Shown here: positions 9,629 through 61,364 of the stretch, piece by piece
Layout: each line of letters begins with the position of its first letter
Position numbering within the stretch: position 1 is the stretch's first letter
Assembly (NCBI GenBank): GCA_963747775.1
Contig: CAVVGT010000005.1
Coordinates: forward strand, 3,148-67,147
Direction of reading: 5' to 3'
DNA from: an uncultured beta proteobacterium
GTDB lineage: Bacteria; Pseudomonadota; Gammaproteobacteria; Burkholderiales; SG8-39
Length of the DNA stretch: 64,000 nt
The notes under the pieces: generated by a model
What the model was told of the DNA's origin: nothing
Database searches by the model: none
The model's input: the letters and a program-made list of their open reading frames with translations, nothing else
Translations under genes and position numbers: made by a program

Positions 9629-9635
9629 CGTTCTT

Positions 9636-9653: not shown

Positions 9654-9685
9654 GTGGCGCGCAGCGCCGGGGTGGTTGCCGCGGC

Positions 9686-10120: not shown

Positions 10121-10141
10121 GGGCGCGGATGGTATCAGCGC

Positions 10142-10570
10142 TTACGCGTGCGGGGCGACGTACGACTCCATCTTCGCCCGCAGGTCGTCGGGCACCGGAA
10201 TCGCGCGGTAGGTATCGAGGGAGATCATCGCGACCTTGTGGCGCGCGCGGAACTTCTCGTTGCCCTCCACCGTGCCGCGGATCGAGAACTCGATCGAGCT
10301 GCGGCCGAGCTTCGCGATCGTGAGGGTGAGCTTGAGCCGGTCGCTCAGGCGGCACGGGCTGTAAAAGTGGCACCCGGTGTCGACGATCGGGAAGCCCCAG
10401 CGGCGCACGAGGTGGATCTCGTTGAAGTTCATGCCGATCACCTCGGCGAACCAGTCCTCGACCGTGCCGTTGCACATGTCGAAGAAGTGGACGAAATAGA
10501 CGATGCCGCCCGGGTCGCACTGCGAGAAGCGGATCACGCGCTCCGCGGAGTAGCTCCTGGACAACGTCAC
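10142..10570 (-). CDS. 4HBT acyl-CoA thioesterase, tandem paralog
   Basis: ..RFSQCDPGGIVYFVHFF.. and shared C-terminal ..IPVPDDLRAKM.. with the neighbour. Likely GTG start overlapping the iorA stop as GTGA. In the ORF track it is the tail of ORF 10142..12715. Confidence 0.7.
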   Translation of the reverse strand: MTLSRSYSAERVIRFSQCDPGGIVYFVHFFDMCNGTVEDWFAEVIGMNFNEIHLVRRWGFPIVDTGCHFYSPCRLSDRLKLTLTIAKLGRSSIEFSIRGTVEGNEKFRARHKVAMISLDTYRAIPVPDDLRAKMESYVAPHA

Positions 10571-45409: not shown

Positions 45410-45548
45410 GGCCTCCCCCGCTAGCGCCGATTGTTGCAAAGATTCATGGCGCTCAGCGATAGGCAGCATAGCCTAGTATGCGGACGGCATAGTGTGCCCG
45501 CGAGCACCCGGCGGGCGGTCGCGACACCGTTCGCGGGGCGCTTCGACG

Positions 45549-47144: not shown

Positions 47145-47155
47145 TGCGCCCGGCC

Positions 47156-48097
47156 TCAGAAGCGGAGCATTCGCCGCAGCGTGCTGGCGAAACTCTTCTG
47201 GCGCAGGTACTTCGTGATCGAGTGCCGCCACGCGCCGTCGTTCTGGACCGCGATGTCCTCGACCGCCGACTTGCCGCCTTTGCGGTAGTCGCTCGCGAGT
47301 ATGGGGTCGAACCCGCAGACGGGATCCAGCCGGTCGAACAGGTTGACCCAGTCGCCGGCGACCCGCTCGTGCGGGAACCCGTCCGCGCGACTCCAGCCCG
47401 GCTGCAGCTTGTCCTGGATCTCGTCGAGGCCGAGCGGGCTGCCGAGCGTGATGAATCCGTCCACCGCCGCGCAATCGGTGACTCGCTTGAGGCAGTCGTA
47501 GGCGATGACCGTGCCCATGCTGTGGGAGACGACGATGTGCGGTCGGGTGACTGCGGGCGCGCAGACCGCGTCCGCAAAACGCCGCCGGATCGTCTGCTGG
47601 ATGCGCACCGCGGGGGTGCGGCCCGGCGGTGCGAACTCCACGTCGAACAGGTAATGATGCACGTCGCTCAAGTACGCTTCGAGGACGCGTTTCTTGATGA
47701 ACCAGGGCAGCGGCACGCGCTCGAGCGCACCTTGCGGCGCTGCGGGCGCGGGGACGGGCGCGGCGGTCTCGAGCTCCGCGTCCGAGAGCGTCGTCATTTT
47801 CGCGCGCAGGGCCGCGATGAACGCCGCCTCCTCCGCGCTCTGCGGCCGGGGGGGCGAGGCGTTCCCGCCGCCATCGATCGCCGCGGCGCTGTTCTCGAGC
47901 ACGCCTTCGTAGGCCGTGAGGTCGTCCTCCGGCTTCGCGTAGAGGAGATCGGCCCAGTAGACCAGCGAGCTGCTCACGCCGAGATCGCCCAAGGGCAGCG
48001 GCTCGGCGGCCTCCGCCAGGGCGTCCCGCCAGATGCGCAGGAGATCGTCCGCCGGCGGCTTGTTCGCGATTCCGTGAATGAAGGTGACGTGCGGCAT
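47156..48097 (-). CDS. alpha/beta hydrolase (lipase/esterase-like), no signal peptide
   Basis: VTFIHGI.. and nucleophile elbow VSHSMGT (GxSxG). 313 aa. Confidence 0.65.
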   Translation of the reverse strand: MPHVTFIHGIANKPPADDLLRIWRDALAEAAEPLPLGDLGVSSSLVYWADLLYAKPEDDLTAYEGVLENSAAAIDGGGNASPPRPQSAEEAAFIAALRAKMTTLSDAELETAAPVPAPAAPQGALERVPLPWFIKKRVLEAYLSDVHHYLFDVEFAPPGRTPAVRIQQTIRRRFADAVCAPAVTRPHIVVSHSMGTVIAYDCLKRVTDCAAVDGFITLGSPLGLDEIQDKLQPGWSRADGFPHERVAGDWVNLFDRLDPVCGFDPILASDYRKGGKSAVEDIAVQNDGAWRHSITKYLRQKSFASTLRRMLRF

Positions 48098-48157
48098 GGT
48101 GCGCTTCCCCTCGTGGGTGTCGAAGCAGTCGGTCTTCGGGCGGCGACGGGCCGATTC

Positions 48158-48772
48158 CTAGAAGTCGTAGGTCGGGTCTTCGCCCAGGTCTGGAATCCTC
48201 GCGACGTAGCCGGTCGCGCCGAAGTCCAGCGGGATGGCTGCCTCGTACCCGGGGAGGCCGACCTCCTTGCGCAGCGCGTTGAGCCGGTTCATCCAGCCTT
48301 TCAGGAAGACCGCGAGGTCCGGGTTCTGCCGGGCGAGACGACGGTAATAGGCCTCGCGCGCGTCGCAGTAGGCCGCGATTCCCCGGCCGATGTCGCAGGC
48401 TGCGGCCGCTCGCTCCGTCTGCGGCCCGAAGTCGCCGTCCACGCCGCATCCGACCGCCGACTGCAGGAACCGCACTGCGCGCCCGACCCCCATGTTGACC
48501 GCGGTATCGAACTGCACGAGATCGAGTTGCTGCCGCAGGAGATCGCATCGCGGCGGCAGCCAATAGCCGCTCTCGTAGATCGCCTGCACTTCGCGGTCCT
48601 CGATCAGCTTGACGTCCCGCCGGGCGAATTGCTGCCGCGCGCGCCACGCATCGTAGACCTTCTGCGTCACGCCCTTGTTCGTCCGTCCGCCCGGATCGGC
48701 GGGATGATCTACAAAACCGCCCTCCCACCGCAGAATGAAGGGCAGCGAGCGCTCGAAGGCGGGGGACGGCAT
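48158..48772 (-). CDS. glycoside hydrolase family 108 muramidase with C-terminal peptidoglycan-binding domain, no signal peptide
   Basis: ..FILRWEGGFVDHPADPGGRTNKGVTQ.. (GH108 catalytic region) and ..VDGDFGPQT.. (PG-binding). Start MPSPAF within ORF 48158..49081. Confidence 0.75.
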   Translation of the reverse strand: MPSPAFERSLPFILRWEGGFVDHPADPGGRTNKGVTQKVYDAWRARQQFARRDVKLIEDREVQAIYESGYWLPPRCDLLRQQLDLVQFDTAVNMGVGRAVRFLQSAVGCGVDGDFGPQTERAAAACDIGRGIAAYCDAREAYYRRLARQNPDLAVFLKGWMNRLNALRKEVGLPGYEAAIPLDFGATGYVARIPDLGEDPTYDF

Positions 48773-48964
48773 GGCGTTCTCCTGTTCATGCGGACCGCGT
48801 TCCGCCGCCCGGCCCGGCCTCGAGCGCGGCCGGCAACGTCGGCCCGACTGTCGGCGCACACTGTAGGGCACGCGGCATTCCTTGGCCAGTCGACCAAACT
48901 GCATAGACCCCGGCGGCGCCGGGAACGTCGCACGGCTGCCGGCGGCCGCGGTCCGGATGGAGCC

Positions 48965-48981
48965 GGGAGACCGTGTCTCCC
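48965..48981. promoter_or_regulatory. perfect palindrome GGGAGAC-cgt-GTCTCCC in the divergent intergenic region, ~28 nt upstream of the ATG at 49009
   Basis: Read in the sequence. Candidate operator or 5'-UTR hairpin; no functional evidence. Confidence 0.2.
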
Positions 48982-49008
48982 GACGGTGAAAACCCTGGAG
49001 GGCAAACG

Positions 49009-49767
49009 ATGAGAAAGACTTTGGCAGCATCCGCGCGCGACTACGTCCTGAAGCTGGACCTTCCCTTTGCGCCGCCCGCATTCGAGGCGGTGACCGCGAT
49101 GGCGTTTTCGGACCAGCGCGAGGCGGTCGCCGTCGGTGCGCAGCTCGCGGAGTTCACCCCTGCGGTGCCGGCCGGCGTGCGCGGCGCCATCGCCGACAGC
49201 ATCCTGCTCGCGCAGCTCGCCGCCAACAAGGTCACCACCCAGACGGAGGACGTCTTCCGCTGGTACGACAAGTACATCGAGGTGCTCCAGAACATCGGCT
49301 GGCAGGTCCGGGACCTCGATTTCCAGGCGCAGCAGGTGAGCGACCAGGACGCCTGGGTGCACAAGGAGATCATCCCGGTGCTCGCGCTGCTGCTCGGGCC
49401 GCAGGCCGCGGCCGCCTCGATCGTGATCGCGGTGCTGAACGGTCTCCAGAATATGGATTCGAGCTCCCCCTGGATCACGCTCTTCGACCAGTCGAGCCAG
49501 CACGCGCGCGGCGCGAAGTTCCAAGTGAGCTACGTCGATGCCGACGCGCAGGGATCCCCGGAGATCTCGCTCCTCTGCTTCGGCATCCAGGCGGACCGGA
49601 CCATCACGCAGGTGCTGTTCTTCAAGACCTCCGCGCAGAGCGCCGAGGTGAAGAAGGCCTCGGCCAAGCTGGCCGTCAGCATGGAGCGCCTGAACTCGGC
49701 GAAGGACGCCCTTGCCGGCCGCGTGCAGCCCTTCATTGCGGACTACGTGAAGAACATCGACATCTGA
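49009..49767 (+). CDS. hypothetical 252-aa protein (no family recognised), first gene of the plus-strand unit
   Basis: MRKTLAASARDYVLKLDLPF.. with a GGAGGG RBS. One hydrophobic segment (IIPVLALLLGPQAAAASIVIAVL). 14 nt upstream of the next gene. Confidence 0.55.
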   Translation: MRKTLAASARDYVLKLDLPFAPPAFEAVTAMAFSDQREAVAVGAQLAEFTPAVPAGVRGAIADSILLAQLAANKVTTQTEDVFRWYDKYIEVLQNIGWQVRDLDFQAQQVSDQDAWVHKEIIPVLALLLGPQAAAASIVIAVLNGLQNMDSSSPWITLFDQSSQHARGAKFQVSYVDADAQGSPEISLLCFGIQADRTITQVLFFKTSAQSAEVKKASAKLAVSMERLNSAKDALAGRVQPFIADYVKNIDI

Positions 49768-49781
49768 GGCGCGGGCCGCGC

Positions 49782-51736
49782 ATGAAGCCGCACGCCTTCA
49801 TCGCCATGCCGTTCGGCACCAAGCCCGGCCACGACGGGCAGCCGATCGATTTCGACCGGGTGTACGCGGAACTGATCAAGCCCGCGCTGGAGGCGGCGGG
49901 CTGGGAGGTGTTCCGGGCCGATGAGGAGCTCCGCGCCGGCGACATCCGCATCGACATGTTCCAGGAGCTGCTGGTCGCCGACCTGGTGGTCGCCGATTTG
50001 ACGCTGAACAACCCCAACGTCTGGTACGAGCTCGGCGTGCGCCACGCGCTGCGCGCACGGGGCGTGGTGCTCGTGCAAGGGCCGCGTCCGACCCAGCCGT
50101 TCGACATCTACACCGACCGCAAGCTGAACTACCGGCTGAAGGACGGCGCGCCCGACGCCGCGCACGTGCAGGCCGATCGCGACGTGCTGGCCGCCATGGC
50201 GCGCGCCACGCTGGAGGCGGCCACCGCGCGGCCGGTCAGCCCCGTCTATGCGCTGCTCGATCACCTGCGCGAGCCCACGTGGCGGGAGCTGCTGCTCGCC
50301 GAGCGAAACGAGTTCAGCCAGGCCTATGAAGCGTGGCGCAGTCGCATGGAGATCGCGCGGCAGAAGAACCGGCCGGGCGACATCCTGGTGCTTGCGGATG
50401 AGACGCCCACCCGCGCGCTGTGGCTGGAGGCCAAGCGCGCCGCGGCGAACGGCCTGCTCAAACTGAGGCAGTTCGATTTTGCCCTGGAGCAGTTCGAGGC
50501 CGCGCTGGCGATCGACCCCGACGACAAGCCGAGCCGCGAGAAGAAGGCGGTGTGCCTCGGCCGCCTCGGCCGTTACGAGGAAGCGCGCGAGTGGACGCGC
50601 CAGCTGACCGATGACTATCCGCGGGACGCCGAGGCCTGGGCGTTGGCCGGCCGCGTCGAGAAGGACGACTGGATCAGCCGCTGGCGGCGCGCCGGCGACA
50701 CGCCGGCGCAGATGCGGGCTGCGGCCGCGGCCGAGGAGGCGAGCCTGCGGGAGGCGATCGAGCCGTACCACAAGGCCTTCATCACCGATCCAAGCCACTA
50801 CTTTTCCGGCATCAACTCCCTCACGCTGCACGTGCTGCAAAAGCACCTGGGGGGCGCACCGGACGCGACCGTCGTCGACAACCTGATCGGCGGCGTGCTC
50901 TGGGCCAGCCTGACCGCTCAGAAGCGCGACCCCAAGGACTACTGGGCGCGCGCGAGCTACGCGGAGCTCTGCCTGCTCGTGAATCCGAAGGAAGCCGTGA
51001 TCCGCGAGTTCCGCGCCGCGGTGGCCGCGGCCAATCGCGACTGGTTCGCGCTCGATTCCACGCTCCAGACGTTGAAGCTGTTGCGCGACCTGGAGTTTCG
51101 CCCCGATGAAACCGGCGCGGCGCTGGAGATCGTGGAGCGCGAAATCGCTCGCGCGAACCCGCCGTTCCTGCCGCGGCAGGTGCTCCTGTTCTCCGGCCAC
51201 ATGGTCGACGCGCCCGGACCGCGCGATGCCGCGCTTTCCGGCCGACAAGGAGCCGGTCGCCGCGCAGAAGATCGCCGCGGCGCTCGATCAGCTCGGTGCG
51301 GGCGCGGGCGACCTCGCCCTGACGCAAGGCGCGGCCGGCGGCGACCTGCTGTTCGTCGAAGCCTGCCTGCAGCGCGGCGTGCGCTGCATGCTGCTGTTCC
51401 CCTTCGAGGAACCCAAGTTCATCGAGGAGTCCCTGCTGGCGTCCAAGGACGGCGAGCGCTGGCGCGAGCGCTACTTCGCGGTCAAGGCGCAACTGAAGGA
51501 CGCGCCGCGCGATCATGCCGGCCGAGCTGGGGCCGCTGCCGAAGGGCGCCAGCGCGTACGAGCGCTGCAACCTGTGGCTGCTGTACACCGCGCTCGCATG
51601 GGGCGTGGACAAGGTGCGCTTCGTCTGCCTGTGGAACGGCGGCGGCGGCGATGGCCCCGGCGGGACCGCGCACATGTACAACGAGGTCAAGCGCCGGACC
51701 GGGCGGGTCACCTGGATCGACACCCGGAAGCTGTAG
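49782..51736 (+). pseudogene. TIR/nucleoside-deoxyribosyltransferase-like N-domain - DUF4071 (TPR-like) - C-terminal Rossmann-like domain protein, interrupted by two +1 frameshifts (~51213 and ~51510)
   Basis: Frame 0: MKPHAFIAMPFG..HYFSGINSLTLHVL..LLFSGHMVDAPG. It continues in ORF 51106..51744 (..PRFPADKEP..TQGAAGGDLLFVEAC..) and then ORF 51515..51736 (MPAELGPLPKG..CLWNGGGGDGPGGTAHM..). Confidence 0.65.
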
Positions 51737-51740
51737 GCAG

Positions 51741-53465
51741 CTAACGGCCGGACGCCGCGTGCGGCGCCGGAGTCGCCGCGTCGGCAGCGCGCGCCGGGCG
51801 CGGCGCGACCGCGTCGAGCAGCGTCGCCATCAGGCCGCGGATCTCGGCGGCGGTGCTGCGCTCCACCGCGAGCAGGCGCGCGGTCGGCGCCGGCGAGCGG
51901 CGGTTGGGCGTGCCGGGCCCGACCGCCGACCAGAGCACGCGCAGCGTCGCCTCGAGGAAACCGCGATCGGTGGTGCCGTCGACCACGAATACCACGCGTG
52001 CGAGCTCGATCGCCTGGAGCAGCTCGCCGAGCTCATACACGCAGCCGCGGTTGGCGGGCGCGAAGCTGCGCAGGTCCATCAGGACGACGTCGCTCTCCTC
52101 GACGAGCCGGTGCATCGTCATCTGCCAGGTGTCGGCGTGGCAGAAGAACTCGTTCACGCGATAGCGGCCGTCGGGGTCGCGCTCCTGGTCGATCGCCGCG
52201 ATCCGCCGCTCGAGGTCGGGGCGGCCGGTGACGAAGCGCCCGGCGAGCTCGCCGCTCGCGAACTCGAGGAACTCGTGCGGCTCCACGGTGCTCGTGACGA
52301 GATCCGGGCCGGCGATCATCGACACGCTCCCGAGGCGCAGCCAGTGCGCGCGCAGCACGTCGAAGAACCGTTCCGAGCGGCTGCCGAGCGCGAAAACGCG
52401 AAGCAGCAGAAGCCGGCGTGGTGCCGGCGCCGGGCGGCGCCGCAGCAATGCGAAGGCGACGATCGTCGCGAGCTTGTAGGCGAGGAACGCGGCGAGCCCC
52501 GTCGCCGCCCAGGTCGCGCCTTCGAAGGCGAAGGCGACGGACTGGCTGATGCCGAAGAACAGGAACACCGTATCGATCGTGAGCGATTGGTCGGAGAGCC
52601 GCTTGCGCTGGTAGCGCCGCCCGAGCCGGCGCAGCACGATCCAGCCGCCGAGGGCGAAGAGCGCGAAGCCGGACACGAGCGTGTACACGAAGATCTCCGT
52701 GCCGCCGAGGCCGAGGAGCGCGCCGGCCTCGACCGCCGCGCGCATCCGGTCGTCGCTTGCGCCCACCACTTTGAGCGCGAGCAAGCTGCCGCCCAGGGCC
52801 AGAACGGCGAAGGTCACGACCAGGGGTCCGACGGCGCGGATCGGACGGGCAAGAAAGAGAAAGAGCAGCGCAGTCTCCGCGCCGTTGGTGATGACCCAGA
52901 AGACCGCCGGATCGTACCAACGGAGATCCGGGCTGCGCGCGAGCGCGATGGCCGCAAGCAGCGCGAACACGCCGCCGTATGCGCCGAGCAGCTTGAGGCG
53001 CGCTGCGCGCGTCGTGCCGGCCACGATTCCGGCCGCGATGACCGCCGGCCAAAGGAAAGTCCAGAAGAACGTCGCGAGCTTCACCGGCCCGACGCCTGCG
53101 TCGACGGTGAAAACGGTCCACGGCACCGACATCACGCAGGCGTACGCCGCCCCGCCGAGACCGTAGATGGCCGCGGCGTGCCAGGGTCCGCGCATCACGT
53201 CCCGGATCCCGGGTGCTTCATCCGCGGCGGAGCGTGCGTCGGCGAACGCGATCTTCAGCGCGTTGGCCGGTCCCGCCGCCGCCGTGCGCACTTTAGCCGT
53301 CGCGTCCCCGCCGCGCGCGGCGGTGTTCATCGACCGCAGCACCGCGCGGCGGTACAGCCGCAGCAGCAGCAGCGAGACGGGAAGCGCGAGGAGCGCGCCG
53401 CCGAGCAGCACCGACGGCAGTTCGCCCGTGATCGCGAGCGTCGTGGGGTCCGTCGTCGCGCTCAT
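51741..53465 (-). CDS. 574-aa polytopic membrane protein (about 10 TM) with ~220-aa cytoplasmic-type C-terminal domain
   Basis: Start MSATTDP overlaps the TIR gene stop (ATGA). There are many hydrophobic helices. The C-terminal ..LLLLRVFALGSRSERFF..VVLMDLRSF..VVFVVDGTTD.. suggests an alpha/beta domain. No family recognised. Confidence 0.6.
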   Translation of the reverse strand: MSATTDPTTLAITGELPSVLLGGALLALPVSLLLLRLYRRAVLRSMNTAARGGDATAKVRTAAAGPANALKIAFADARSAADEAPGIRDVMRGPWHAAAIYGLGGAAYACVMSVPWTVFTVDAGVGPVKLATFFWTFLWPAVIAAGIVAGTTRAARLKLLGAYGGVFALLAAIALARSPDLRWYDPAVFWVITNGAETALLFLFLARPIRAVGPLVVTFAVLALGGSLLALKVVGASDDRMRAAVEAGALLGLGGTEIFVYTLVSGFALFALGGWIVLRRLGRRYQRKRLSDQSLTIDTVFLFFGISQSVAFAFEGATWAATGLAAFLAYKLATIVAFALLRRRPAPAPRRLLLLRVFALGSRSERFFDVLRAHWLRLGSVSMIAGPDLVTSTVEPHEFLEFASGELAGRFVTGRPDLERRIAAIDQERDPDGRYRVNEFFCHADTWQMTMHRLVEESDVVLMDLRSFAPANRGCVYELGELLQAIELARVVFVVDGTTDRGFLEATLRVLWSAVGPGTPNRRSPAPTARLLAVERSTAAEIRGLMATLLDAVAPRPARAADAATPAPHAASGR

Positions 53466-55018
53466 CGGGCGAGCGTGAAATCCACGAGCTCGAAGGTGGC
53501 GAGCTCCTGCGGCACGTTGCGCTCGTAGGTGCGCGCGTCGACCTTGACGAAGCGCTTCGCCGCGGGCGCATACCAGAGGGTGACGATCGAGTGCAGCGGG
53601 ATGCGGTTGATGAACGTGCTCCCGCGCCCTTCGGCCACGACCTTGATCGCATCGAACGTGCCGGCCGGCACGGTCACCTGCTCGCGCCCCGCGATCCGCA
53701 TCGCCATCTCGATGGTGGCATCGGAGGAGAGCTGGCGCTTCACCGTGGGCAGCGACGCGCCGTCGTCGAGTCGGTAGAACGCCTGCAGGTAGGGCGCGAG
53801 ATCGGGCGGCGCGTATTCGAGACCAGAGTGGCCGGAAAAGCGTGGCTCGCGCGCGACCACGATTCGGCTCTGGTAGTCGGGGCGGTTCGACACGCGCAGC
53901 AATTCGCCGACGCCGGCCTCGCTCACCGTGTCGACCCGGTAGGTCATCCGGGCGACCTCGGCACGGCGGAAGCCGTCGACGTAGCGATAGGTCCAGGTGT
54001 CGCCCGGCGCGGGCATCAGCGGCGGGCGCGCCGCGACGGCGACCTTCGGCGGTGCAGGCTCGGCGGCCGGAGGCTTCTGGGCCTCCGCGGCCGGTGCCGC
54101 GGGCGCGGGGGCGGGCGGCGCGATGGCGGCCTGCGGTGCGGGCGGCGCGACCGGTTTCGGCTGCGCCTTGGGCGCCTGCCGCCGCTTCTCCTCGTCGGCC
54201 TTCCGCGCGGCCTCCGCGGCGGCGCGCGCGCGCTCGGACTCGGCCTGCGCGATGCGCCGCTGGTCTTCCCGACGCTGGTCTTCCTCCTGCGCGCGGCGCG
54301 CGGACTCGGCCTCCGTCGCCCGAGCCTTCTCGTCGATGCTCCGTTGCTTCGCATCGAGCTCGGCCTGGCGCTTTGCGGCCGTCTCCTCGGTGCGGCGGCG
54401 CGCCTCGTCGAATGCTCTCTGCCGCGAGTCCAGCTCGACGGCGCGGCGGTCGACGTCGTCGAAGTAGCGCATGACCCCGAAGGTGCCGGCGGCGACGATT
54501 GCAACGCCGAGGACGGCCGGAACGAGCCGGCGCAACCACATCCGCCAGTCGGCGCCCGCCGTGCCGCGCTCGACGCGGATCGCCGCCAGCGTCTGCGGCG
54601 GCGTGACCCCGGGCGTGAGCAACGCCCTCAGGTCGGAGACGAGCTGGCGGAAGCCGGGCGAGGTCTGGTCGCCGTGGTAGCCGACGAGGTTGGCGGCGTG
54701 GATACTGCGAAAGCCCATGGGCGGCTCGACCGCGTCGATCAGCACCGGCACGAGGATGCCGCGCTCGAGCCCTTCGTTCGCCTCGTCGCGGACCCAGCGC
54801 GAGGTGATCGAGGCTTTCGACCACAGCACCAGGACGCAGTCCGACTTCTTGATCTCGGACTCGATGACGCCGGCGAAGGTCTTGCCGGCCTGCAGCTTGT
54901 GGTCCCACCACACCGCCCACCCCAGCGCCTCGAGATCGGCCGCGATCTCGCGCGCGCGGTCGCGGTCCTCGCTGGCGTAGCTGAGGAAGATGCGAGGCAC
55001 GACCGCGCCGCCGGTCAA
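53462..55018 (-). CDS. TIR domain protein with TM helix, charged coiled-coil, Pro/Ala-rich linker and C-terminal beta-rich domain
   Basis: RIFLSYASEDRDRAREIAADLEALGWAVWWD..CVLVLWSKASITSRWVRDEA (TIR, conserved Glu ~aa 79). TM LVPAVLGVAIVAAGTFGVM (aa ~165-183). Confidence 0.8.
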   Translation of the reverse strand: MTGGAVVPRIFLSYASEDRDRAREIAADLEALGWAVWWDHKLQAGKTFAGVIESEIKKSDCVLVLWSKASITSRWVRDEANEGLERGILVPVLIDAVEPPMGFRSIHAANLVGYHGDQTSPGFRQLVSDLRALLTPGVTPPQTLAAIRVERGTAGADWRMWLRRLVPAVLGVAIVAAGTFGVMRYFDDVDRRAVELDSRQRAFDEARRRTEETAAKRQAELDAKQRSIDEKARATEAESARRAQEEDQRREDQRRIAQAESERARAAAEAARKADEEKRRQAPKAQPKPVAPPAPQAAIAPPAPAPAAPAAEAQKPPAAEPAPPKVAVAARPPLMPAPGDTWTYRYVDGFRRAEVARMTYRVDTVSEAGVGELLRVSNRPDYQSRIVVAREPRFSGHSGLEYAPPDLAPYLQAFYRLDDGASLPTVKRQLSSDATIEMAMRIAGREQVTVPAGTFDAIKVVAEGRGSTFINRIPLHSIVTLWYAPAAKRFVKVDARTYERNVPQELATFELVDFTLAR

Positions 55019-55129
55019 AGCGACTTCAGGTAATCGAGCAGCGCATCTTTGTCGCCCTCGGGCAGGTCGACGCCGAACGCGTGGCCGCGGTTCGAGTTGG
55101 CGCCCAGCGCGTTAAGGCTGCGGGCGCGT

Positions 55130-56371
55130 CTAGTCAAACGTTTCATCCCCATTCGGCTCGTAGTGCGGCACACCGTTCATGTCGTGCCGATACTTCGACA
55201 ACTCGAAGTACATGCGCTTCCGGGCCCGGCTTTGGTTGCCGAGCGGGCGATGCTCGGCGACGCAGTGCCACGGGTTGTAGGAAAGCCGTCGCGCGAACGC
55301 GATCTGCGCCGGCGAATCGAATTTCTGCTGCGGAATGCGCAAGGTGGCCACCGAGACGCGGGGCGACAGCCGTTCCGGCCACAGTACGGCGTTGTTCTCG
55401 ATCGGCATCCGCTGAGGATCGGTCTGCAGCTGCAGGCGCACGTCGAGCTCGACATCGCCTTGATCGAGCGCGGCGACCATCGCTTTGCGCAGGTAGTCAT
55501 CGGGCGGCCGCAGCGGCAGGCGCGGGATCGGTGTCTTCTTGCTCGACTTCGGCCATACCGAATATTGCATCGCCTGCCCTTCTCCCAGCAGATACGGCAC
55601 GCAACTGAAGTACGGCGCCTCGAACGGACTGCTCTGGGTCTTGATCCACAGTCCCTGCATGATGAAATCCAGCACGTGCGGGCGGTGGAAGTTCAGGAAG
55701 TAGAAGAGCGATGCGTTCTTCAGGCTCTCACGCTGCAACTGGGCGTTCGCGCTCGTGTCCGGCGTCACGAAAGTGGGCGTGGACACGCCGAACATGTCCT
55801 GCGTGAACTTCTCCTCGTCCATCAGCTTGTCGCCGGGGACTCCCATCAGCTTGATGCTGATGCTCATGAAACCCACGTCGTCGATGTCCGGCGTCACGTA
55901 CGGCCCGGGTCCGGAAAAGCGCACCCATGCGCGATAGGTCTTGGGTTGCGCGTAGATGCCGTGCCGGAACCGCGGCGGCAGGCCGTCGTGGACGATGAAC
56001 TCCGCCCGCACGATGCCGTGGGTCTTGGTGTTTCCGCCGCGTTCGAATCCGCCCGGCTTCCAGAGCCCGCGCATCTGCGCCCGGAAGGTATCGATGATCG
56101 ATTGGAGCGACGCCTCTTCGTCCGGCTGCACCCGTTCCTCGGCGATCTTCAGTCCCTCGTTCGGGCGCCGCCAGTTGATCAACGCGGTGGTCAGGCGCGC
56201 GATCGGGTCGCGCAGCACCGCATCGAAGGGCGGACGCATCCAGGGATCGATGCGCCGCTGCAGTTGCAGCAGTCGCAGTGACGTGTCGCTGATCCAGTTG
56301 AGGAGCACCGAGCCGGTTTCGGCCGGCGGCGCCGGGCGGCTCGTCATTGAGCCCAACACGTTCCTTTGCAT
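55130..56371 (-). CDS. catalase-related haem protein (catalase-core-like, ~413 aa)
   Basis: ..FERGGNTKTHGIVRAEFIV.. resembles the catalase distal-His region, and C-terminal ..RARKRMYFELSKYR.. resembles the proximal-Tyr region. Start MQRNV within ORF 55130..56821. Confidence 0.5.
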   Translation of the reverse strand: MQRNVLGSMTSRPAPPAETGSVLLNWISDTSLRLLQLQRRIDPWMRPPFDAVLRDPIARLTTALINWRRPNEGLKIAEERVQPDEEASLQSIIDTFRAQMRGLWKPGGFERGGNTKTHGIVRAEFIVHDGLPPRFRHGIYAQPKTYRAWVRFSGPGPYVTPDIDDVGFMSISIKLMGVPGDKLMDEEKFTQDMFGVSTPTFVTPDTSANAQLQRESLKNASLFYFLNFHRPHVLDFIMQGLWIKTQSSPFEAPYFSCVPYLLGEGQAMQYSVWPKSSKKTPIPRLPLRPPDDYLRKAMVAALDQGDVELDVRLQLQTDPQRMPIENNAVLWPERLSPRVSVATLRIPQQKFDSPAQIAFARRLSYNPWHCVAEHRPLGNQSRARKRMYFELSKYRHDMNGVPHYEPNGDETFD

Positions 56372-56382
56372 CGCGACCCCTT

Positions 56383-57891
56383 TCAGCGCGTCGTGGCGAG
56401 GTAACGCAAGGCGCGAATACCGGGCAGGAAAAAGTAGGCGCCACCCAGCACGGTGACGAACTGCGGCAGGCCGTTCAACCGACGATCCGGACCATCGGCT
56501 TGCGGAATCGAGAAGCCGTCGGTGGGCGAATCCCCCGGGTCCGGCAATCGGTGGCCCAGCAATGGATCGCTTTCGGTGAGCCCGGCAAATTTGCTCCCGA
56601 TCAACCACGCGCTTTGCACGAACTCGAACTGGCGCTTGATGTTGGCCGCGAGGCAGATGAAATGGATCCCGGTATCCGCGCCGGACGAGGATTCCGTGGC
56701 AGACCGCGCCGGCACCACGCCTGCACCGAATGCCCGTCCGCGGCGAAGCAGGCGATGAAAGCGTGTGGATGCGACCAGGTCCCGCTCCAGTGCCGCCGTG
56801 TTGAATCCCAGCATGCGCCACAGACGCGACAGGATTCCGCGCCCACCGGGCGGCAAATCCGCGTTACGCGGATTGGTCCGTCGAATGTGAGCGCCCAATG
56901 GGCAGCGCAGGCCCCGCGGATCGGCCTGGTAGGTGAAGTCGTTCAATGTCGATTGCTGCGTTGAAGCGCCGCCAGCGACCGATTCCCCGCTTGGCGCCGC
57001 AAGGGGCTCGCCATCTTTCTTTCGGCCGACCATCGCCGCGGCCAGTCGCTCGCGCAAGTCCGCATCGCCTTGCGCTTGCCGGTCCAGTTCGCGCCAGAAG
57101 CCCTGCACGTCCTGCCGCAGCTGGCGCAGCACGAGATAGCAGCCGTTGCGTCCGAGGTCGGCCTGGTCCGGCGCGTCCTCGGCCCTCGGCAGCAGAGCAC
57201 CCGGGTCACGCTGTGGGGCCAGCAGCGGACGCGGCGTGTAGAGCCCGTACTCGTTGGGATAGCCGAGCAGGAACTCGCCGAGACAGGTTACGTTGCCGTA
57301 CTCGAGCTGGTCCCGGTCGCGCACCGGGCGCTTGCGTTCCCAATCGACTTCCGGTTGTGAAATGCCGTCGGCAAATCCGAACGGTTCCACGCCCCGCATG
57401 TCGGACGTCGACAGGCGTCCGATGCGCACGAAGCCGGCCGCGTATTGCGCTTCGATCTCCTGCTCCCACGCCGCCAGCCGCCCGGGCCTCGCGTAGAGGA
57501 GCACGGCGACGTGCGGCACCCGCTCGCCGACGCCCCATCGCCACTTTCCGGGGTCGCTGGCGCCGACATCTCCCAAACGGCGTGCGCGTGTGCCGTCGCT
57601 CGCCATGCCGGCGACAAATTCGGCTGAGAACGCCGCACAGAGGTCAGGAGCGACCTCCAACGCACGCAGTCCCTCGCTCGTGAGTGCGACGTGGAGCGCA
57701 GTCTGGGGCGGCGAATCGGCCTTGACTGCGCTCGTTACCGGGGCCCGCGCCAACCAGGCGCGCGCAGCGGCCGGATCCTCGACGCGCAGCAGGAGAAAAC
57801 AGGCTTCCGTCAGGTGCTTGTATCCGAACCGCACCAGGCCCTGAACGTCGTCCAGTTCCACCGATCTGCCCTCGCTCGGGGTCGCGTTCAT
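56383..57891 (-). CDS. DyP-type haem peroxidase
   Basis: ..EPFGFADGISQP.. and ..GAHIRRTNPR.. are DyP hallmark regions. Start MNATPSE overlaps the upstream stop (ATGA). Confidence 0.8.
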   Translation of the reverse strand: MNATPSEGRSVELDDVQGLVRFGYKHLTEACFLLLRVEDPAAARAWLARAPVTSAVKADSPPQTALHVALTSEGLRALEVAPDLCAAFSAEFVAGMASDGTRARRLGDVGASDPGKWRWGVGERVPHVAVLLYARPGRLAAWEQEIEAQYAAGFVRIGRLSTSDMRGVEPFGFADGISQPEVDWERKRPVRDRDQLEYGNVTCLGEFLLGYPNEYGLYTPRPLLAPQRDPGALLPRAEDAPDQADLGRNGCYLVLRQLRQDVQGFWRELDRQAQGDADLRERLAAAMVGRKKDGEPLAAPSGESVAGGASTQQSTLNDFTYQADPRGLRCPLGAHIRRTNPRNADLPPGGRGILSRLWRMLGFNTAALERDLVASTRFHRLLRRGRAFGAGVVPARSATESSSGADTGIHFICLAANIKRQFEFVQSAWLIGSKFAGLTESDPLLGHRLPDPGDSPTDGFSIPQADGPDRRLNGLPQFVTVLGGAYFFLPGIRALRYLATTR

Positions 57892-59186
57892 AGCAGCCGC
57901 AACCAGGCCTGCGCCTGTGCATCGGTCACATTCACCGGCTCCAGCCCTTCCCTGATGCGCTGGTTGCGCTTGAGGTCGACCAGGGCGAGGCCCGGATAGG
58001 CCTTGTACCAGACCTGGGTCGGCAACTGGTGGCGGCGCTGGTAGTGCTTGAACCTGTTTTCGATGCGCGCGCCGCGCGCGACCAGCCAACGCGTGCGCGG
58101 CCAGCCCACGCCGTGGCTGAAAGCGAGATTCAGGCCCCAGGCCACCTTGTTGATGAAGTCGTCCATGTAGGCCTCGTGACCGCCGTCGTAGTTGCTGGTG
58201 AAGACGAGCCGGCGCTTGTCGTCGAGAAAAGCCCAGAACGCGAAATGGATCGTCTGCACGCGCGCGAGAAAGCCGCGCGTGAAAAGATGGCGGCAGGTGT
58301 AGTCGATCAGCACCAGCAGCACGGTGACGAGCCAGCGGCGGAACCATCCCGGCTTGACCGAGCCGATCGCCGTGTACTGGTTGGACACGTCGTGGTCTTC
58401 CAGATGCTGCAATTCCAGCAGCACCGCGCGGTCCGGGGGCGGGCAGATTTCGGCGTCGCCGTTCTCTTTCGTGCGCAGGATGTAGATCAATAGCGGCGAC
58501 AGGACGATCAGCAGCGGCAGCAGGATCAGGCCCACAAGCGGAATCGCAACGAGATGCAGGAGCTTTGCGATTTGCCAGCGCAGCGGCGTCGGATCCGGCG
58601 GCGTCAGGCCAAGCCTCCCGGCGCTTACTTCGGCATCGACGAAGTCGATCAGCTCGCGCCGGAGCTGCTGGGCTTGCGCGGCCGATGCGAGCGGCGCGCG
58701 CGGCACTTTCGCGGCGAGCGCACGTCGCAGTGCGCCTTCCTCCTTGATCTGCCGCACCGTGCGACCGACCCAATTGATGTAATTGGCAGCGAGCGGACGT
58801 TGATGCGCTTGCATCCAGGCGAGCAGGTCGCCCTGCGCGTCGAAGCCGTCGCAGTGCATGAAGATCCGGCGCAGGCCCGCGCCCGCGCGCTGCGCAAAGT
58901 CTGCGATGCACTCGCTGGCGGGCCCGTCACAGCTGACGATAAACGCAAGGTAGACCGGCAGGCTCGGGCGCGGGACACCGTGCGCTTCAATGTCGCCGAG
59001 CGTCGGATCGTCCAGCACCGCCAGCCGGGCGAAATGCAGGCGCTCGAATTGCCCGAACGGCAAGACCGCGTTCGCCGGGTCGGCCATGCCCGGCTGCGAG
59101 TTCATCGCGTCCAGCAGTTCCCGCAGGCTGCGCTCGCGACCCGGTGTGACCCGTGCCAGCACCATGAACTGGGACTGCGGCGTCAC
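57888..59186 (-). CDS. 432-aa membrane-associated hypothetical protein co-transcribed with the DyP peroxidase
   Basis: Soluble N-domain, then TM segments (LLHLVAIPLVGLILLPLLIVLSPLLIYIL; WLVTVLLVLIDY). No family recognised. Confidence 0.55.
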   Translation of the reverse strand: MTPQSQFMVLARVTPGRERSLRELLDAMNSQPGMADPANAVLPFGQFERLHFARLAVLDDPTLGDIEAHGVPRPSLPVYLAFIVSCDGPASECIADFAQRAGAGLRRIFMHCDGFDAQGDLLAWMQAHQRPLAANYINWVGRTVRQIKEEGALRRALAAKVPRAPLASAAQAQQLRRELIDFVDAEVSAGRLGLTPPDPTPLRWQIAKLLHLVAIPLVGLILLPLLIVLSPLLIYILRTKENGDAEICPPPDRAVLLELQHLEDHDVSNQYTAIGSVKPGWFRRWLVTVLLVLIDYTCRHLFTRGFLARVQTIHFAFWAFLDDKRRLVFTSNYDGGHEAYMDDFINKVAWGLNLAFSHGVGWPRTRWLVARGARIENRFKHYQRRHQLPTQVWYKAYPGLALVDLKRNQRIREGLEPVNVTDAQAQAWLRLL

Positions 59187-59207
59187 GGCGTCATCTCCCT
59201 TCCCCCC

Positions 59208-61358
59208 TCACCCCGGCAGGCACGGCCGCAGCTGCTCGTAGCCGTCGGCGAGGAGCAGGTCGAGCCGCGGCGCCGCGCCGCTCTCGGCGCGCACGAGCTC
59301 GGACGCGGTGCGCTCGAGCCCGGCGACTGCGGGCGCCGGCTCGTAGGCCTCCCCGCGCGCCGACGGAAGCGGCGGCGGCATCGGCGTCTTGTCCCGCGCC
59401 GCGGACGGGGCGCCCCACAACGCGAGGCGCGCGTAGATGCGCGGCGCGCAGTGCTTCACGCTCGCCACGACCCGCTCCGGCGGGCCGGCGAGGAAATTCG
59501 GCGGCGAGCGCTCCGCGGTCGCGTGGCAGCCCGCGCACAGCGAATAGAAGGCGGCGAACGGCGCCGCGGCGCCGTCGACGGGCATCGGCGGCTGCGGCGC
59601 TTCGACCGCGGCCGGTGGGAGGCGTGAAGCGTCCTCGCAGCACCACTCGCGCGCGGGGACCCCGAGCTGCGCGAAGAGCGCCGAGAGCACCCGCACCCGG
59701 CTGAACGTCCGGGCGGCGAGCGGTGCGTCGTCACCCGGCTCGCTGGCGAGCGCGGCGACGGCGCTCCGCACCGGCGCGAAGTCGTCGATCGCGGTGACGG
59801 TCGTGCGCGCGGACACTTCGCGGACGCCGCCCCGGGCACGCGCCTCGGCCGGCTTCCAGGCGAGCGCGATGCCGGCGATCGCGGCACCGTCGGCGAGCCG
59901 CGCGTTCGCGCCCCGGCTGCCGAGCGTGACCGCCGCGCGGCCCACGCCGGCGTCGAACGTGCCGGCCGCCACATCGAGATGCTCGAGCGGCGGCGCGCCG
60001 TCAACCTCGAGCGCGCCGATTTCGCCGCCCGCGACGCGCGTGCCGCGGAGGTCGAGGCGCCCGGCTACGCGCAGCGGCGTGTCCCCGGTACCGACGCACT
60101 TGAACCGCGCGCGCGACCCGGTCCAGGCGATCTCGCACGGCGCTTCGCGGCGCCGCTCGACCGGGCGTTCGCGGCCGGCGTGCGCCGCAAGCTGGCCCTC
60201 GAGCACACGGATGTCGACCGCGGTGACGAACTCGGCGAGCCCGGCCACGAGGCGGCGCGCGGTGTCCGCCCCGGGCGAGGCCCACACCTCGAGGGGCGCG
60301 CGCGGCGCGAGCGGCTCGAACGCCGCCGGGACATGCGCGGCCGCGAGCCCCGCGGGGCGCAGGGCGCCTTCGGGGGGCAGCGGGTCGCGGTTCGGAACGT
60401 CCGGGTTCGGGATGGCGATCCCGGACGGCCATTGGGCGCTCCAGGCGCGGCCGAATGCGGGCAGGAACTCGTCGCGCCAGATCGGCGAGCGCTCATCGAA
60501 CGCGCGCTCGTCGGTGAGCCGGTACTGGAGCGCGGCGACGAGCGCCGCGCCGCGGCACCGGGCGCCCGCTGCGCCGTCGCCGCAGCCGACGCGCCACAGT
60601 AGCTGCCAGACGCCGAGCAGATTCGCGCGGTCGGTCGCGGCATCGATCGCGTCCGGAACGTCGACGCCGCGCTGGATGGGGACGCCGTGATACGCCGCAC
60701 GCTCGTGTCCCCCATCGCCGTCGGGGCGCGCGAGGCGCGCGGCGACGCGCGGGTTCGCGTTCGTCTCCTCCCACACCTGTCGCGAGAAAAGCGGCGCGAG
60801 GTTCTGGTGGCAGGCGGCGCACATCGCGCGGCGCGCGTACACGACCTCGCGCGCCCCGCCCGCGCGGTAATCGCGCACGATCTGAAACTCGAACCGGCCG
60901 GCCGCCTCGTTGTAGCTGATCACCTCGACCAGGTCGCTCTTCTCCTGGTAGCCGAGGTAGATCCGGTCCTTCGCGAGCAGCACGCTTCCCCGTGTGGCCT
61001 CGCCGACGATCGCCGCCACCACGCGCGGATGCCTGAAGAACTCCGGTGCGGCCGCGGTGCGCTGGAGCGATCGCCCGAGCGGAATGAGCACTTGCTTGAC
61101 GCACGGCTCGCGGCCCGCGCAACCGGCGCGCTCGGCGACGCGCTGCACCAGCGCCGTGAACGGGAACGGGATGTCGAAGACGCGTTTTCCGTCGGCTTCG
61201 CGCGTGACCACGAAATCGAACAGCGACCGCCCCGCAGGCGGCGCATCGGGCCCGGGCGCGGCGGGGTTCACGGCCCACGCCGGCGCGTCCGCGGCGCGCG
61301 GCGCGAGCGGGCACGCGAGCAGGGCCGTCGCGATCGTCGCCATGACCGCGCCGCGCAT
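59208..61358 (-). CDS. secreted protein with two c-type haem-binding motifs (CxxCH)
   Basis: Signal peptide MRGAVMATIATALLACPLAPRAADA; motifs CAACH and CAGCH. Confidence 0.6.
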   Translation of the reverse strand: MRGAVMATIATALLACPLAPRAADAPAWAVNPAAPGPDAPPAGRSLFDFVVTREADGKRVFDIPFPFTALVQRVAERAGCAGREPCVKQVLIPLGRSLQRTAAAPEFFRHPRVVAAIVGEATRGSVLLAKDRIYLGYQEKSDLVEVISYNEAAGRFEFQIVRDYRAGGAREVVYARRAMCAACHQNLAPLFSRQVWEETNANPRVAARLARPDGDGGHERAAYHGVPIQRGVDVPDAIDAATDRANLLGVWQLLWRVGCGDGAAGARCRGAALVAALQYRLTDERAFDERSPIWRDEFLPAFGRAWSAQWPSGIAIPNPDVPNRDPLPPEGALRPAGLAAAHVPAAFEPLAPRAPLEVWASPGADTARRLVAGLAEFVTAVDIRVLEGQLAAHAGRERPVERRREAPCEIAWTGSRARFKCVGTGDTPLRVAGRLDLRGTRVAGGEIGALEVDGAPPLEHLDVAAGTFDAGVGRAAVTLGSRGANARLADGAAIAGIALAWKPAEARARGGVREVSARTTVTAIDDFAPVRSAVAALASEPGDDAPLAARTFSRVRVLSALFAQLGVPAREWCCEDASRLPPAAVEAPQPPMPVDGAAAPFAAFYSLCAGCHATAERSPPNFLAGPPERVVASVKHCAPRIYARLALWGAPSAARDKTPMPPPLPSARGEAYEPAPAVAGLERTASELVRAESGAAPRLDLLLADGYEQLRPCLPG

Positions 61359-61364
61359 CGTGCC

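Follow-up and report, generated by a model that had tools for sequence, protein, structure and literature searches.

A gene for a TIR-domain protein that runs by a stop/start overlap into a gene for a protein with about ten transmembrane (TM) helices raises the question whether both constitute a sensor/effector pair of the Thoeris type, as a sequence-only reading of this DNA had proposed, or became neighbours by other means. The locus is part of a window of 64,000 nucleotides, i.e., the whole stretch analyzed, from an uncultured beta proteobacterium. Both open reading frames (ORFs) are present on the minus strand where that reading had placed them, the receptor-like TIR gene at 53462-55018 and the gene of the 574-aa membrane protein at 51741-53465. 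In the junction letters CTC GCC CGA TGA GCG, the TGA of the former and the ATG of the latter share the ATGA at 53462-53465. The GC content of the window is 70% and many frames carry long ORFs. Over the full length of both genes, GC3 amounts to 0.82-1.00 in the correct frame, and hundreds of homologues were found for each of the two proteins, including about 40 full-length orthologues of the TIR protein. This coding pattern together with the homologues identifies both ORFs as real genes instead of chance products. The longest start of the TIR gene is the TTG at 55018, resulting in 518 aa; a GTG six codons inside the ORF is a likely alternative start and a closer fit to the 507-aa orthologue of the related locus L001. 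There, the end of the TIR ORF (8004) overlaps the start of the membrane-gene match (8001) as in the window. The ATGA overlap implies co-transcription of both genes. Still, adjacent genes on one strand often overlap by 4 nt in genomes of high GC content, which speaks for an incidental juxtaposition.

According to prediction, the TIR protein spans the membrane once. Its TIR domain (aa 10-127, 54638-54991, minus strand), predicted to be cytoplasmic, matches TIR_2 (PF13676) with E=1.8e-24 and 87 bits, over the 28-bit gathering threshold. Glu79 (nt 54782-54784) in the motif SRWVRDEA aligns with the W-x-x-x-E Glu of the NAD+ hydrolase AbTIR, which bears out the catalytic-type Glu previously read from the sequence. 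A single TM helix follows (aa ~160-186, 54461-54541, minus strand) with an Arg-rich flank on its N-terminal side, and an N-in/C-out topology was predicted from hydropathy and flanking charges. The subsequent part (53984-54460, minus strand), predicted to be periplasmic, comprises a charged TolA-like helical stalk (aa ~187-290; NCBIfam tolA_full, TIGR02794, E=5.2e-5 for aa 200-313) and a Pro/Ala-rich linker (aa ~291-345; Pro/Ala-rich letters can be read from aa ~285 onwards), so that the described succession of TM helix, charged stretch and linker was found again by hydropathy, TolA match and composition. The C-terminal domain (aa ~346-518, 53465-53983, minus strand) is DUF3108-like and a putative periplasmic sensor. 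With 17.4 bits for DUF3108 (PF11306) and 19.9 bits for DUF3108_like (PF21347), the window protein stays below the gathering thresholds of 26 and 27, respectively; several of its orthologues have precomputed matches to PF11306 or PF21347. The DUF3108-like domain also sits behind a caspase (Peptidase_C14) in the proteins P0165, P0166, P0193, and P0224, which fits a role of TIR as an output domain, and such an exchange of TIR and caspase on one domain fits the swap expected of receptor-plus-executor proteins. The TIR protein is no soluble sensor of the ThsB type; it is predicted to be single-pass, with its putative sensor domain facing the periplasm.

The AlphaFold2 model of the membrane protein (pLDDT 84.9, pTM 0.85) features 9-10 TM helices between aa 7 and 342, followed by an α/β domain of six strands (aa 350-553). 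The polytopic region (52440-53447, minus strand), also indicated by hydropathy and positive-inside loops, contains the modelled helices 7-47, 87-120, 127-149, 153-177, 185-205, 212-235, 238-250, 255-286, 292-311, and 318-342. The predicted cytoplasmic, Rossmann-like domain (51807-52418, minus strand), recognized by the alignments A1 and A4, the model and Foldseek, reached a pLDDT of 85.3 when modelled alone. Its residues R356, R363, S364, D388, T391, R421, R434, R436, D464, R466, E478, D496, and T499 are invariant in A1 and A4, and on this basis the domain appears to have a conserved Arg/Asp/Ser/Thr pocket. No match to the membrane protein was obtained in Pfam, PADLOC (0 families at E<=1), NCBIfam, PDB sequences or Foldseek PDB, in agreement with the earlier statements that its family is unnamed and that SIR2, SLOG, Macro and known TM-effector families are unrecognizable in it. 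For the Rossmann-like domain, Foldseek returned generic Rossmannoid/GTPase-like matches only, with a TM-score of at most 0.51. A P-loop GTPase was rejected, given that the best matches, RhoA and MeaB, showed an rmsd of ~10 Å and E-values of at least 1.5e-3, and that the strand-1 loop reads F-A-L-G-x-R-S-E without a Walker A motif GxxxxGK[ST]. No similarity of this domain was detected, be it to SLOG, TIR and Macro or to a solved structure, and ligand binding by it is therefore a guess. According to sequence similarity, the protein belongs to a large family without a name, featuring more than 1,560 homologues, each annotated as 'hypothetical', 2,199 representatives at 50% clustering, and a patchy, transfer-prone distribution.

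The pair lies at the edge of a conflict/defence-type island of ~20 kb with TIR, STAND and TPR-S genes. Convergent to the membrane gene and separated from its stop by 4 nt lies a TIR-like/TPR-S/X-domain gene (49782-51736, plus strand; Pfam TPR-S, E=5e-20). Its protein has a TIR-like N-terminus and a TPR-S/MAP3K_TRAF_bd middle part and ends in an 'X' domain that is weakly SLOG-like; PADLOC assigns the protein to 'Effector TIR' (E=3.8e-6). The window copy carries two frameshifts (~51214 and ~51511); the copy in L001 is intact and encodes 650 aa. YAcAr (PF10686)/SLOG was matched by the X domain in 3 of 12 homologues, with a best E-value of 0.004 and under the gathering score, and a PDB profile search of the X domain gave no match. 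Judged by this weak SLOG-likeness, the X domain would be a better candidate for the receiver of a nucleotide signal at this locus than the membrane protein, and the pair as initially drawn had left its gene out. A 264-aa protein of an unnamed family (48973-49767, plus strand), without a Pfam match and syntenic in L001, L002, and L018, is encoded 14 nt upstream of the TPR-S gene. On the minus strand, a three-gene operon (45549-48790) codes for a GH108 muramidase with PG_binding_3 (48158-48790), a 313-aa α/β-hydrolase with an SHSMG motif (47156-48097), and a protein with TPR-S and Trypsin_2 (45549-47150). Further island genes on the same strand (39837-45472) encode a DUF4062 protein (43649-45472) and a 1,363-aa ParA-like/TIR_2/nSTAND1/TPR protein (39837-43928). 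The operon and these further genes were assigned by Pfam. The defence-type setting of the locus is apparent from the TIR-nSTAND1, TPR-S-trypsin, GH108, α/β-hydrolase, and DUF4062 genes (Pfam, PADLOC). The island genes, with the membrane gene among them, are found again in a different arrangement in the loci L009, L011, and L018, where the GH108/hydrolase/TPR-S-trypsin operon adjoins the membrane family.

Conservation of the orthologous pair in other organisms, on which the sequence-only reading had staked its claim, did not emerge. The orthologous TIR/membrane pair was found only in L001 and L002, which represent the window's own lineage with 88-94% DNA identity to the window. Six further TIR orthologues (43-72% identity) are without the membrane gene, and the genes downstream of them all differ. 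The TIR orthologue comes after g708 and two RoxA-like cytochrome c genes in L081, L082, and L084 and after g708 alone in L083; in L086 it is associated with a TPR-S homologue. Directly upstream of the window TIR gene, the 3' end of a RoxA-like cytochrome c gene, ~76 codons long, has been kept (55015-55245, minus strand; translation ending in ...GDKDALLDYLKSL*), whose stop overlaps the TTG start of the TIR gene. This remnant shares 71% identity with the last 76 aa of the RoxA2 of L081 (measured in L001), and its presence makes the TIR/membrane junction look recent. Conversely, in L005, L006, and L017 'cat-like', 432-aa and Dyp-like genes are followed by the membrane gene as the last one, without a TIR gene; these three are related betaproteobacterial loci. 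In L042, the membrane gene is located directly upstream of a RoxA2 homologue.

At the family level, the picture differs from that of the orthologous pair. Within 8 kb, TIR genes were counted around 80 membrane-family loci, a set including the non-independent loci L001/L002 and L009/L011. A TIR gene was present in 20 of them, seven times within ~550 nt. TIR density was six-fold higher in the nearest bin (0-1 kb, 6.8 per 100 kb) than in the farthest (4-8 kb, 1.1; chi-square p=0.003), an enrichment that compares distance bins around the membrane gene and does not refer to a genome-wide TIR background rate. The receptor-like TIR neighbours combine TIR with FGE-sulfatase, PASTA x5, CHASE2 or PG_binding_1, most of them with predicted TM helices. 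The order membrane gene, then TIR gene was found in L014, L088, L066, and L080, with membrane proteins of 34-62% identity, and a reverse search from the TIR family of this conserved order retrieved members of the membrane family from 5 metagenomic loci. TPR-S homologues are the commonest conserved neighbours of the membrane family; TPR-S/X-domain proteins occurred in 15 of the 80 loci, in 10 of these together with TIR (Fisher p=1.7e-4). The TIR/TPR-S associations are scattered over the whole membrane-family tree and several phyla. Accordingly, the proposed pairing of TIR and polytopic membrane genes holds in part, supported by the family-level enrichment and the order in four lineages, but three quarters of the loci (60/80) are without TIR within 8 kb.

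These results are best explained, albeit tentatively, by a lineage-specific operon of two membrane-associated conflict-type genes which were joined by rearrangement, together with a TIR/TPR-S partnership at the family level that is proposed to serve signalling. In many lineages, members of the membrane family are accompanied by membrane-anchored TIR receptors as well as by TIR-like/TPR-S/SLOG-like proteins. A comparable organization is given by the receptor-like TIR 'conflict systems', so far predicted only, in which a TM helix connects TIR to an extracytoplasmic domain that is lectin-like or of another kind, e.g., FGS/FGE-sulfatase and NPCBM (Kaur et al. 2021, PMC8195603). The cytoplasmic TIR, the TM helix and the variable extracytoplasmic domain are shared with the window protein as predicted, as are the STAND NTPase, TPR and trypsin/caspase neighbours and the TIR/caspase swap on one sensor domain. 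The window protein differs by its DUF3108-like sensor on a TolA-like stalk, and neither this combination nor its link to a RoxA-like operon was found in the accessible literature. Against this explanation stand the loci L167-L169, where the GH108/hydrolase/TPR-S-trypsin operon occurs without the membrane family and TIR genes are always near, and the 60 TIR-free membrane-family loci, with many loci of the family among housekeeping genes. The restriction of the orthologous pair to one lineage, the TIR orthologues without the membrane gene, the recent-looking junction, the TIR-free Dyp-like clusters, and the unassigned Rossmann-like domain count against it as well.

A somewhat less likely alternative is an incidental juxtaposition, i.e., a deletion or recombination that merged two clusters and gave rise to the ATGA overlap without functional coupling. 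The TIR protein would then be a self-contained envelope receptor/NADase of a g708/RoxA-like operon, and the 10-TM protein the independent product of the terminal gene of a Dyp-like/'cat-like' cluster. Indeed, the gene order in the window looks like a hybrid of RoxA-type and Dyp-like-type clusters, with the RoxA remnant, the differing downstream genes of the TIR orthologues and the TIR-free clusters pointing in the same direction. However, many unrelated lineages show TIR genes enriched and clustered close to the membrane family, and the order of membrane gene and TIR gene is conserved to 35% identity. Moreover, TPR-S homologues occur near both genes independently, i.e., near the TIR orthologue of L086 and in the 15 membrane-family loci mentioned above.

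Improbable is a strict two-gene system in the sense of Thoeris, in which the TIR protein would sense infection and an ADPR-derived signal would bind the C-terminal domain of the 10-TM protein, so that membrane disruption kills the cell. Thoeris systems whose effectors carry TM helices or uncharacterized domains have been described, and a 2025 preprint predicts 29 types of effector, among them 3TM, 4TM-SLOG, SLATT, and ion-channel effectors (10.64898/2025.12.03.692087); such effectors would leave room for the membrane protein. Among the effectors examined in Table S1 of the same preprint, none has 5 or more TM helices (10.64898/2025.12.03.692087). With Thoeris (ThsB TIR and effector; types I-XI, some with TM, SLATT or ion-channel effectors) the locus shares the catalytic-type-Glu TIR beside a membrane protein in an operon-like ATGA arrangement, an α/β domain on the cytoplasmic side that bears a conserved charged pocket and might in principle take a signal, the defence-type island, and a weakly SLOG-like domain encoded by the adjacent gene. 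In contrast, the orthologous pair is confined to one lineage, and the window TIR is predicted to be a membrane-anchored receptor with a periplasmic domain, unlike soluble ThsB. The membrane protein has no recognized SLOG, Macro, SIR2, DUF2270, DUF6650 or SLATT domain; a signal-binding family was undetectable by Pfam, PADLOC, Foldseek, and PDB searches. Furthermore, this candidate effector mostly occurs without any TIR gene nearby. Of the Thoeris-like character suggested at the outset, the catalytic-type Glu and the TIR enrichment near the membrane family stand, but the locus is not a demonstrated Thoeris-like pair.

Nucleotide-activated membrane effectors, e.g., SLATT, PycTM, and TM-SAVED/CARF, are likewise found in CBASS, Pycsar, and type III CRISPR. 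They resemble the membrane protein in joining a TM module to a cytoplasmic, potentially ligand-binding α/β domain. Nevertheless, they have 2-4 TM helices compared to 9-10 here, sequence or structure similarity is lacking in PADLOC and Foldseek, and neither a cyclase nor another signal generator is constantly encoded nearby. As to the TPR-S/MAP3K_TRAF_bd proteins (PF20308, PF13281) with effector or SLOG-type ends, two of them flank the window pair; the membrane protein and the TIR-DUF3108 protein themselves have no TPR-S domain, and the membrane family is not constant in the GH108/hydrolase/TPR-S-trypsin operon.

The least probable reading denies both genes a function in defence and assigns their products an accessory role, in the envelope or in stress signalling, within a cluster of periplasmic oxidative enzymes (GMC oxidoreductase, Dyp-like peroxidase, RoxA-like cytochromes and 'cat-like' protein), where they might, e.g., sense or export products of the oxidative pathway. 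This reading can draw on the position of both genes at the 3' end of related clusters in different genomes, on L042, and on the predicted periplasmic location of the TIR sensor domain, where such enzymes act (the GMC oxidoreductase has a TAT signal), but this setting is confined to few related betaproteobacterial lineages, whereas the TIR/TPR-S association spans several phyla, the membrane family is patchy and transfer-prone as typical of accessory or conflict genes, and catalytic-Glu TIR domains are not known to have a role in such oxidative metabolism.

Returning to the lineage-specific operon with a family-level partnership, the occurrence of the membrane family near TIR/TPR-S immune-type genes in many bacteria makes a functional link between the TIR protein and the membrane protein plausible, though unproven. 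The gene and domain structure, the predicted topology and the statistical associations are results of the analysis; all activities and the direction of signalling at the TIR/membrane locus are inferred. An envelope or periplasmic cue might cluster the receptor and switch on the TIR NADase. The loss of NAD+ or an ADPR-derived product would be read by cytoplasmic receiver domains, namely the SLOG-like one in the TPR-S protein and possibly also the Rossmann-like one in the 10-TM protein. Beside the neighbouring protease, hydrolase, and muramidase effectors, the 10-TM protein, a candidate effector, may then act as a membrane-damaging or membrane-gating executor.

The TIR gene (53462-55018, - strand) and the membrane gene (51741-53465, - strand) overlap in an ATGA (53462-53465, - strand) that provides the stop of the former and the start of the latter. 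Long ORFs occur in several frames of the window because its GC content is about 70%. Both genes predicted by the sequence-only reading are nevertheless real, since each features a coding GC3 signal in the right frame along its entire length as well as many homologues. The loci of the same lineage carry the orthologous pair, with DNA identities to the window of 93-94% across 17.6 kb for L001 (an uncultured betaproteobacterium MAG contig) and 88-91% for L002. A scan of positions 51400-55400 for promoters and terminators revealed none exceeding shuffled expectation.

The TIR protein begins with a TIR_2 domain (aa 10-127, Pfam E=1.8e-24), and the conserved glutamate claimed for it is indeed present. 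Glu79 (nt 54782-54784) lines up with the W-x-x-x-E glutamate of the NAD+ hydrolase AbTIR, the catalytic residue of that enzyme. The domain is followed by a single hydrophobic helix (aa ~160-186), whose N-terminal flank bears Arg residues and thus predicts an N-in/C-out topology, by a charged region matching TolA (E=5e-5), by a Pro/Ala-rich linker and by a last segment of ~170 aa with sub-threshold Pfam matches to DUF3108 and DUF3108_like, families that several TIR orthologues attain. Helix, topology, stalk and C-terminal domain together characterize the protein as a predicted single-pass membrane receptor-type TIR with a putative periplasmic sensor, whereas ThsB of Thoeris is cytoplasmic. About 40 full-length orthologues were found. 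In other proteins this C-terminal domain follows Peptidase_C14 (caspase) domains, and such an exchange of TIR and caspase on a common C-terminal domain suggests that the N-terminal domain would be the output domain.

The membrane protein was modeled with AlphaFold2 from 73 homologues (pLDDT 84.9, pTM 0.85). The model features 9-10 TM helices (aa 7-342) and a six-stranded α/β domain (aa 350-553), which is placed in the cytoplasm by positive-inside loops. This C-terminal domain is the best conserved region, with many invariant Arg, Asp, Ser and Thr residues and the motifs LLLLRVFxLGxRSE, MIAGPDL, RYRVxEFFC, VLMDLRSFSxxNxGCxYELG and RVVFxxDxTTD. In agreement with the sequence-only reading, the protein could be placed in no known family: it has no match in Pfam, PADLOC, NCBIfam or PDB sequences and profiles, and the family is thus new to all libraries searched. 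Foldseek comparison of the full model and of the C-terminal-domain model with the PDB gave nothing significant (none at E<1e-3); the matches were all generic Rossmannoid or GTPase-like (RhoA, MeaB, PpnN, eIF2B, TRPM8 N-terminal region), with TM-scores <=0.51. A degenerate GTPase was rejected on account of the missing Walker A motif and the low TM-scores, homology to the TPR-S N-terminal domain via a D-L-x-x-x-N-x-x-x-YELG motif because of an hhalign probability of 0.2, and kinship with the weakly SLOG-like C-terminal X domain of the neighboring TPR-S gene because of a probability of 0.3.

The family itself is large, with more than 1,560 matches in a word-indexed search, every one labeled 'hypothetical', and at least 2,199 representatives at 50% clustering in an exhaustive search. 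Among the best 150 of these 2,199, most are ~550 aa long with an equal domain position, and the shorter entries resemble fragments. Rare variants include P0118 with an FHA domain fused at the C-terminus, L061 (6834-9764) with N-terminal TPR repeats, beyond which Pfam detects nothing there, and two tandem family copies in a Syntrophus locus (L025, 7335-12014), each with a ~220-aa N-terminal extension of no assigned family. The X domain, sought as evidence of fusion, is absent from the N-terminal extensions in L021 and L025. A plasmid or phage origin was rejected, as tblastn found no homologue in either collection.

Conservation of the orthologous pair beyond its lineage, a point that the sequence-only reading had named for checking, did not hold from either side. 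Among 80 membrane-family loci from Beta-, Gamma-, Alpha- and Deltaproteobacteria, Acidobacteriota, Chloroflexota, Actinomycetes and Verrucomicrobiota, the TIR protein of the window lies upstream of the membrane gene in L001 and L002 only. A different TIR protein occupies this position in L020, and the other immediate neighbors are heterogeneous, with housekeeping genes being frequent. Likewise, the membrane family is absent from all six loci examined for TIR orthologues of 43-72% identity (P0144, P0152, P0147, P0132, P0130, P0140). Three of these orthologues stand downstream of a 708-aa protein (g708) and two RoxA-like cytochrome c genes, and a fourth (P0147, locus L083) follows the 708-aa protein alone. 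On one contig (ERZ25039549 contig_29128, covering L169 and L082), a TIR-DUF3108 orthologue of 56% identity is again ~10 kb away from the GH108/hydrolase/TPR-S-trypsin operon, there on the other side of the g708/RoxA cluster and without a 10-TM gene.

The genes upstream bear on the origin of the junction. Directly ahead of the TIR gene, the window and L001 have kept ~76 terminal codons of a RoxA-like cytochrome c gene; in the window this remnant (55015-55245, - strand) ends in GDKDALLDYLKSL, and its stop codon overlaps the TTG with which the TIR gene begins. In three other betaproteobacterial loci, L005, L006 and L017, a cluster of 'cat-like', 432-aa and Dyp-like genes is followed by the membrane gene as the last member, without a TIR gene. 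The cluster extends over 55130-61364 (- strand) in the window, 580-8247 in L005 and 1954-9632 in L006, and is likewise present in L017. Its products are a 'cat-like' protein of 416 aa, a membrane protein of 432 aa and a Dyp-like peroxidase, preceded by a TAT-signal GMC oxidoreductase in L005 and, in the window, by g708 with 718 aa; of all these, only the Dyp-like protein and the GMC oxidoreductase have a family. The order in the window (g708, 432-aa, Dyp-like, 'cat-like', RoxA remnant, TIR, membrane gene) appears to combine the RoxA/g708 and the Dyp-like/'cat-like' cluster types. Given this order and the remnant, a recent event confined to the lineage is the simplest explanation of the ATGA junction.

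The membrane family as a whole is nonetheless enriched near TIR genes. With a TIR profile built from the membrane-family loci themselves, at least one TIR ORF was found within 8 kb in 20 of the 80 loci, in seven of them within ~550 nt. The TIR density per 100 kb decays from 6.8 (0-1 kb) to 4.4 (1-2 kb), 3.1 (2-4 kb) and 1.1 (4-8 kb) when normalized for the flank length available (chi-square p=0.003). The neighboring TIR proteins are receptor-like, combining TIR with FGE-sulfatase, five PASTA, CHASE2 or PG_binding_1 domains, and most have predicted TM helices. The order membrane gene, then TIR gene is kept in L014, L088/L089/L095, L066 and L080, with 34-62% identity among the membrane proteins and 45-58% among the TIR domains. 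A reverse metagenome scan starting from this TIR family recovered the membrane family in five of 80 loci, only 28 of which reached 8 kb or more.

A second recurrent neighbor is the convergent TPR-S gene (49782-51736, + strand), which consists of three parts: a TIR-like N-terminus (PADLOC 'Effector TIR' E=3.8e-6; Pfam TIR_2 E=0.0025), a TPR-S/MAP3K_TRAF_bd middle and the X domain, whose likeness to SLOG is weak (YAcAr E=0.004, three of 12 homologues, under threshold). Homologues of this protein, or merely of its X domain, accompany the membrane family at 15 of the 80 loci, in 10 of them together with TIR (Fisher p=1.7e-4), and the TIR and TPR-S associations are spread across the entire membrane-family tree. 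In L086, a full-length TPR-S homologue is located 8 nt upstream of a TIR-DUF3108 orthologue. The gene in the window is interrupted by two frameshifts (~51214, ~51511) when compared with its L001 orthologue, which is intact at 650 aa, and the L002 gene is frameshifted at different places; long-read sequencing errors or recent pseudogenization are the likely causes. A full-text literature search for 'TPR-S' and related terms returned no paper.

These genes are part of an island at about 34.6-55 kb of the window, which also encodes a Peptidase_M6 protein, an MBL-fold protein, a weak EAD2 protein, a 1,363-aa ParA-like/TIR_2/nSTAND1/TPR protein (39837-43928, - strand), a DUF4062 protein, an operon of GH108, α/β-hydrolase and TPR-S+Trypsin_2 genes (45549-48790, - strand) and a 264-aa protein of no known family. 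The 1,363-aa protein has a ParA/MinD-like P-loop, and its PADLOC match (PDC-M28B) is confined to the ParA-like part. The set of GH108, hydrolase, TPR-S-trypsin, 650-aa TPR-S and membrane genes recurs rearranged in L009, L011 and L018; the GH108/hydrolase/TPR-S-trypsin operon is far more widely distributed than this five-gene set. The operon is very tight, adjoins genes for TIR_2 or TIR-nSTAND1 proteins and matches nothing in PADLOC; its hydrolase (~312 aa, SHSMG motif) belongs to a family with more than 1,900 matches at 70-80% identity. It may represent an undescribed multi-effector conflict operon. In L167, L168 and L169, where it occupies ~9300-12550, it lies beside TIR genes and the membrane gene is absent within 10 kb, so the latter was rejected as a core member of the operon and the membrane family is an optional member of the island network.

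Tentatively, we favor the reading that a single lineage brought together two membrane genes associated with conflict, and that the membrane family is a candidate membrane executor, or a candidate co-sensor, within a loose network of TIR, TPR-S and SLOG-like proteins with presumed signaling steps. Incidental juxtaposition of the two genes is a serious rival, if on the unlikely side; it agrees with the lineage-restricted junction and the heterogeneous neighbors, and has to be weighed against the decay of TIR density around the family. The strict Thoeris-like pair of the sequence-only reading is supported in part only and, as such, improbable: the TIR domain with its Glu and the enrichment near TIR genes stand, but the pair is not conserved beyond its lineage. 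The 29 Thoeris effector types predicted in a 2025 preprint, which excluded standalone TIR proteins, comprise 3TM, 4TM-SLOG, SLATT and ion-channel forms among others, and the rows of its Table S1 that were compared contain no effector with five or more TM helices (10.64898/2025.12.03.692087). A role tied to periplasmic oxidative-enzyme clusters, next to which the membrane gene lies in L005, L006, L017 and the window amid otherwise varied neighborhoods, is slightly more improbable.

Beyond the favored reading of a loose network, the 10-TM/Rossmann-like family could, though this is doubtful, form the membrane arm of a widespread and so far undescribed immune module for envelope surveillance. Upon envelope breach, receptor-like TIR proteins with periplasmic sensors (DUF3108-like, FGE-sulfatase, PASTA, CHASE2) would produce an NAD+-derived signal, which SLOG-like/TPR-S proteins and the cytoplasmic domain of the 10-TM protein would read, leading to membrane and cell-wall self-destruction. 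In bacteria, such a module would parallel the logic of Toll-like receptors and employ a new effector family. Computational predictions by Kaur et al. (2021, PMC8195603) include receptor-like TIR proteins whose external domains are lectin-like; a tested bacterial example was found neither there, where they are predicted only, nor in the Thoeris preprint, whose screen excluded them (10.64898/2025.12.03.692087).

If the link is real, the TIR-based immune repertoire would gain a large unnamed membrane-protein family of at least 2,199 clusters at 50% identity, whose members come from Proteobacteria, Acidobacteriota, Chloroflexota and other phyla, and experimental access would open to receptor-like bacterial TIR proteins sensing outside the cytoplasm. 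If it is not, an ATGA-coupled TIR/membrane pair is shown to be able to stem from recent rearrangement, and the label 'system' should therefore await a check of conservation from both partners. Either way, the 10-TM/Rossmann-like family merits a name and a test.
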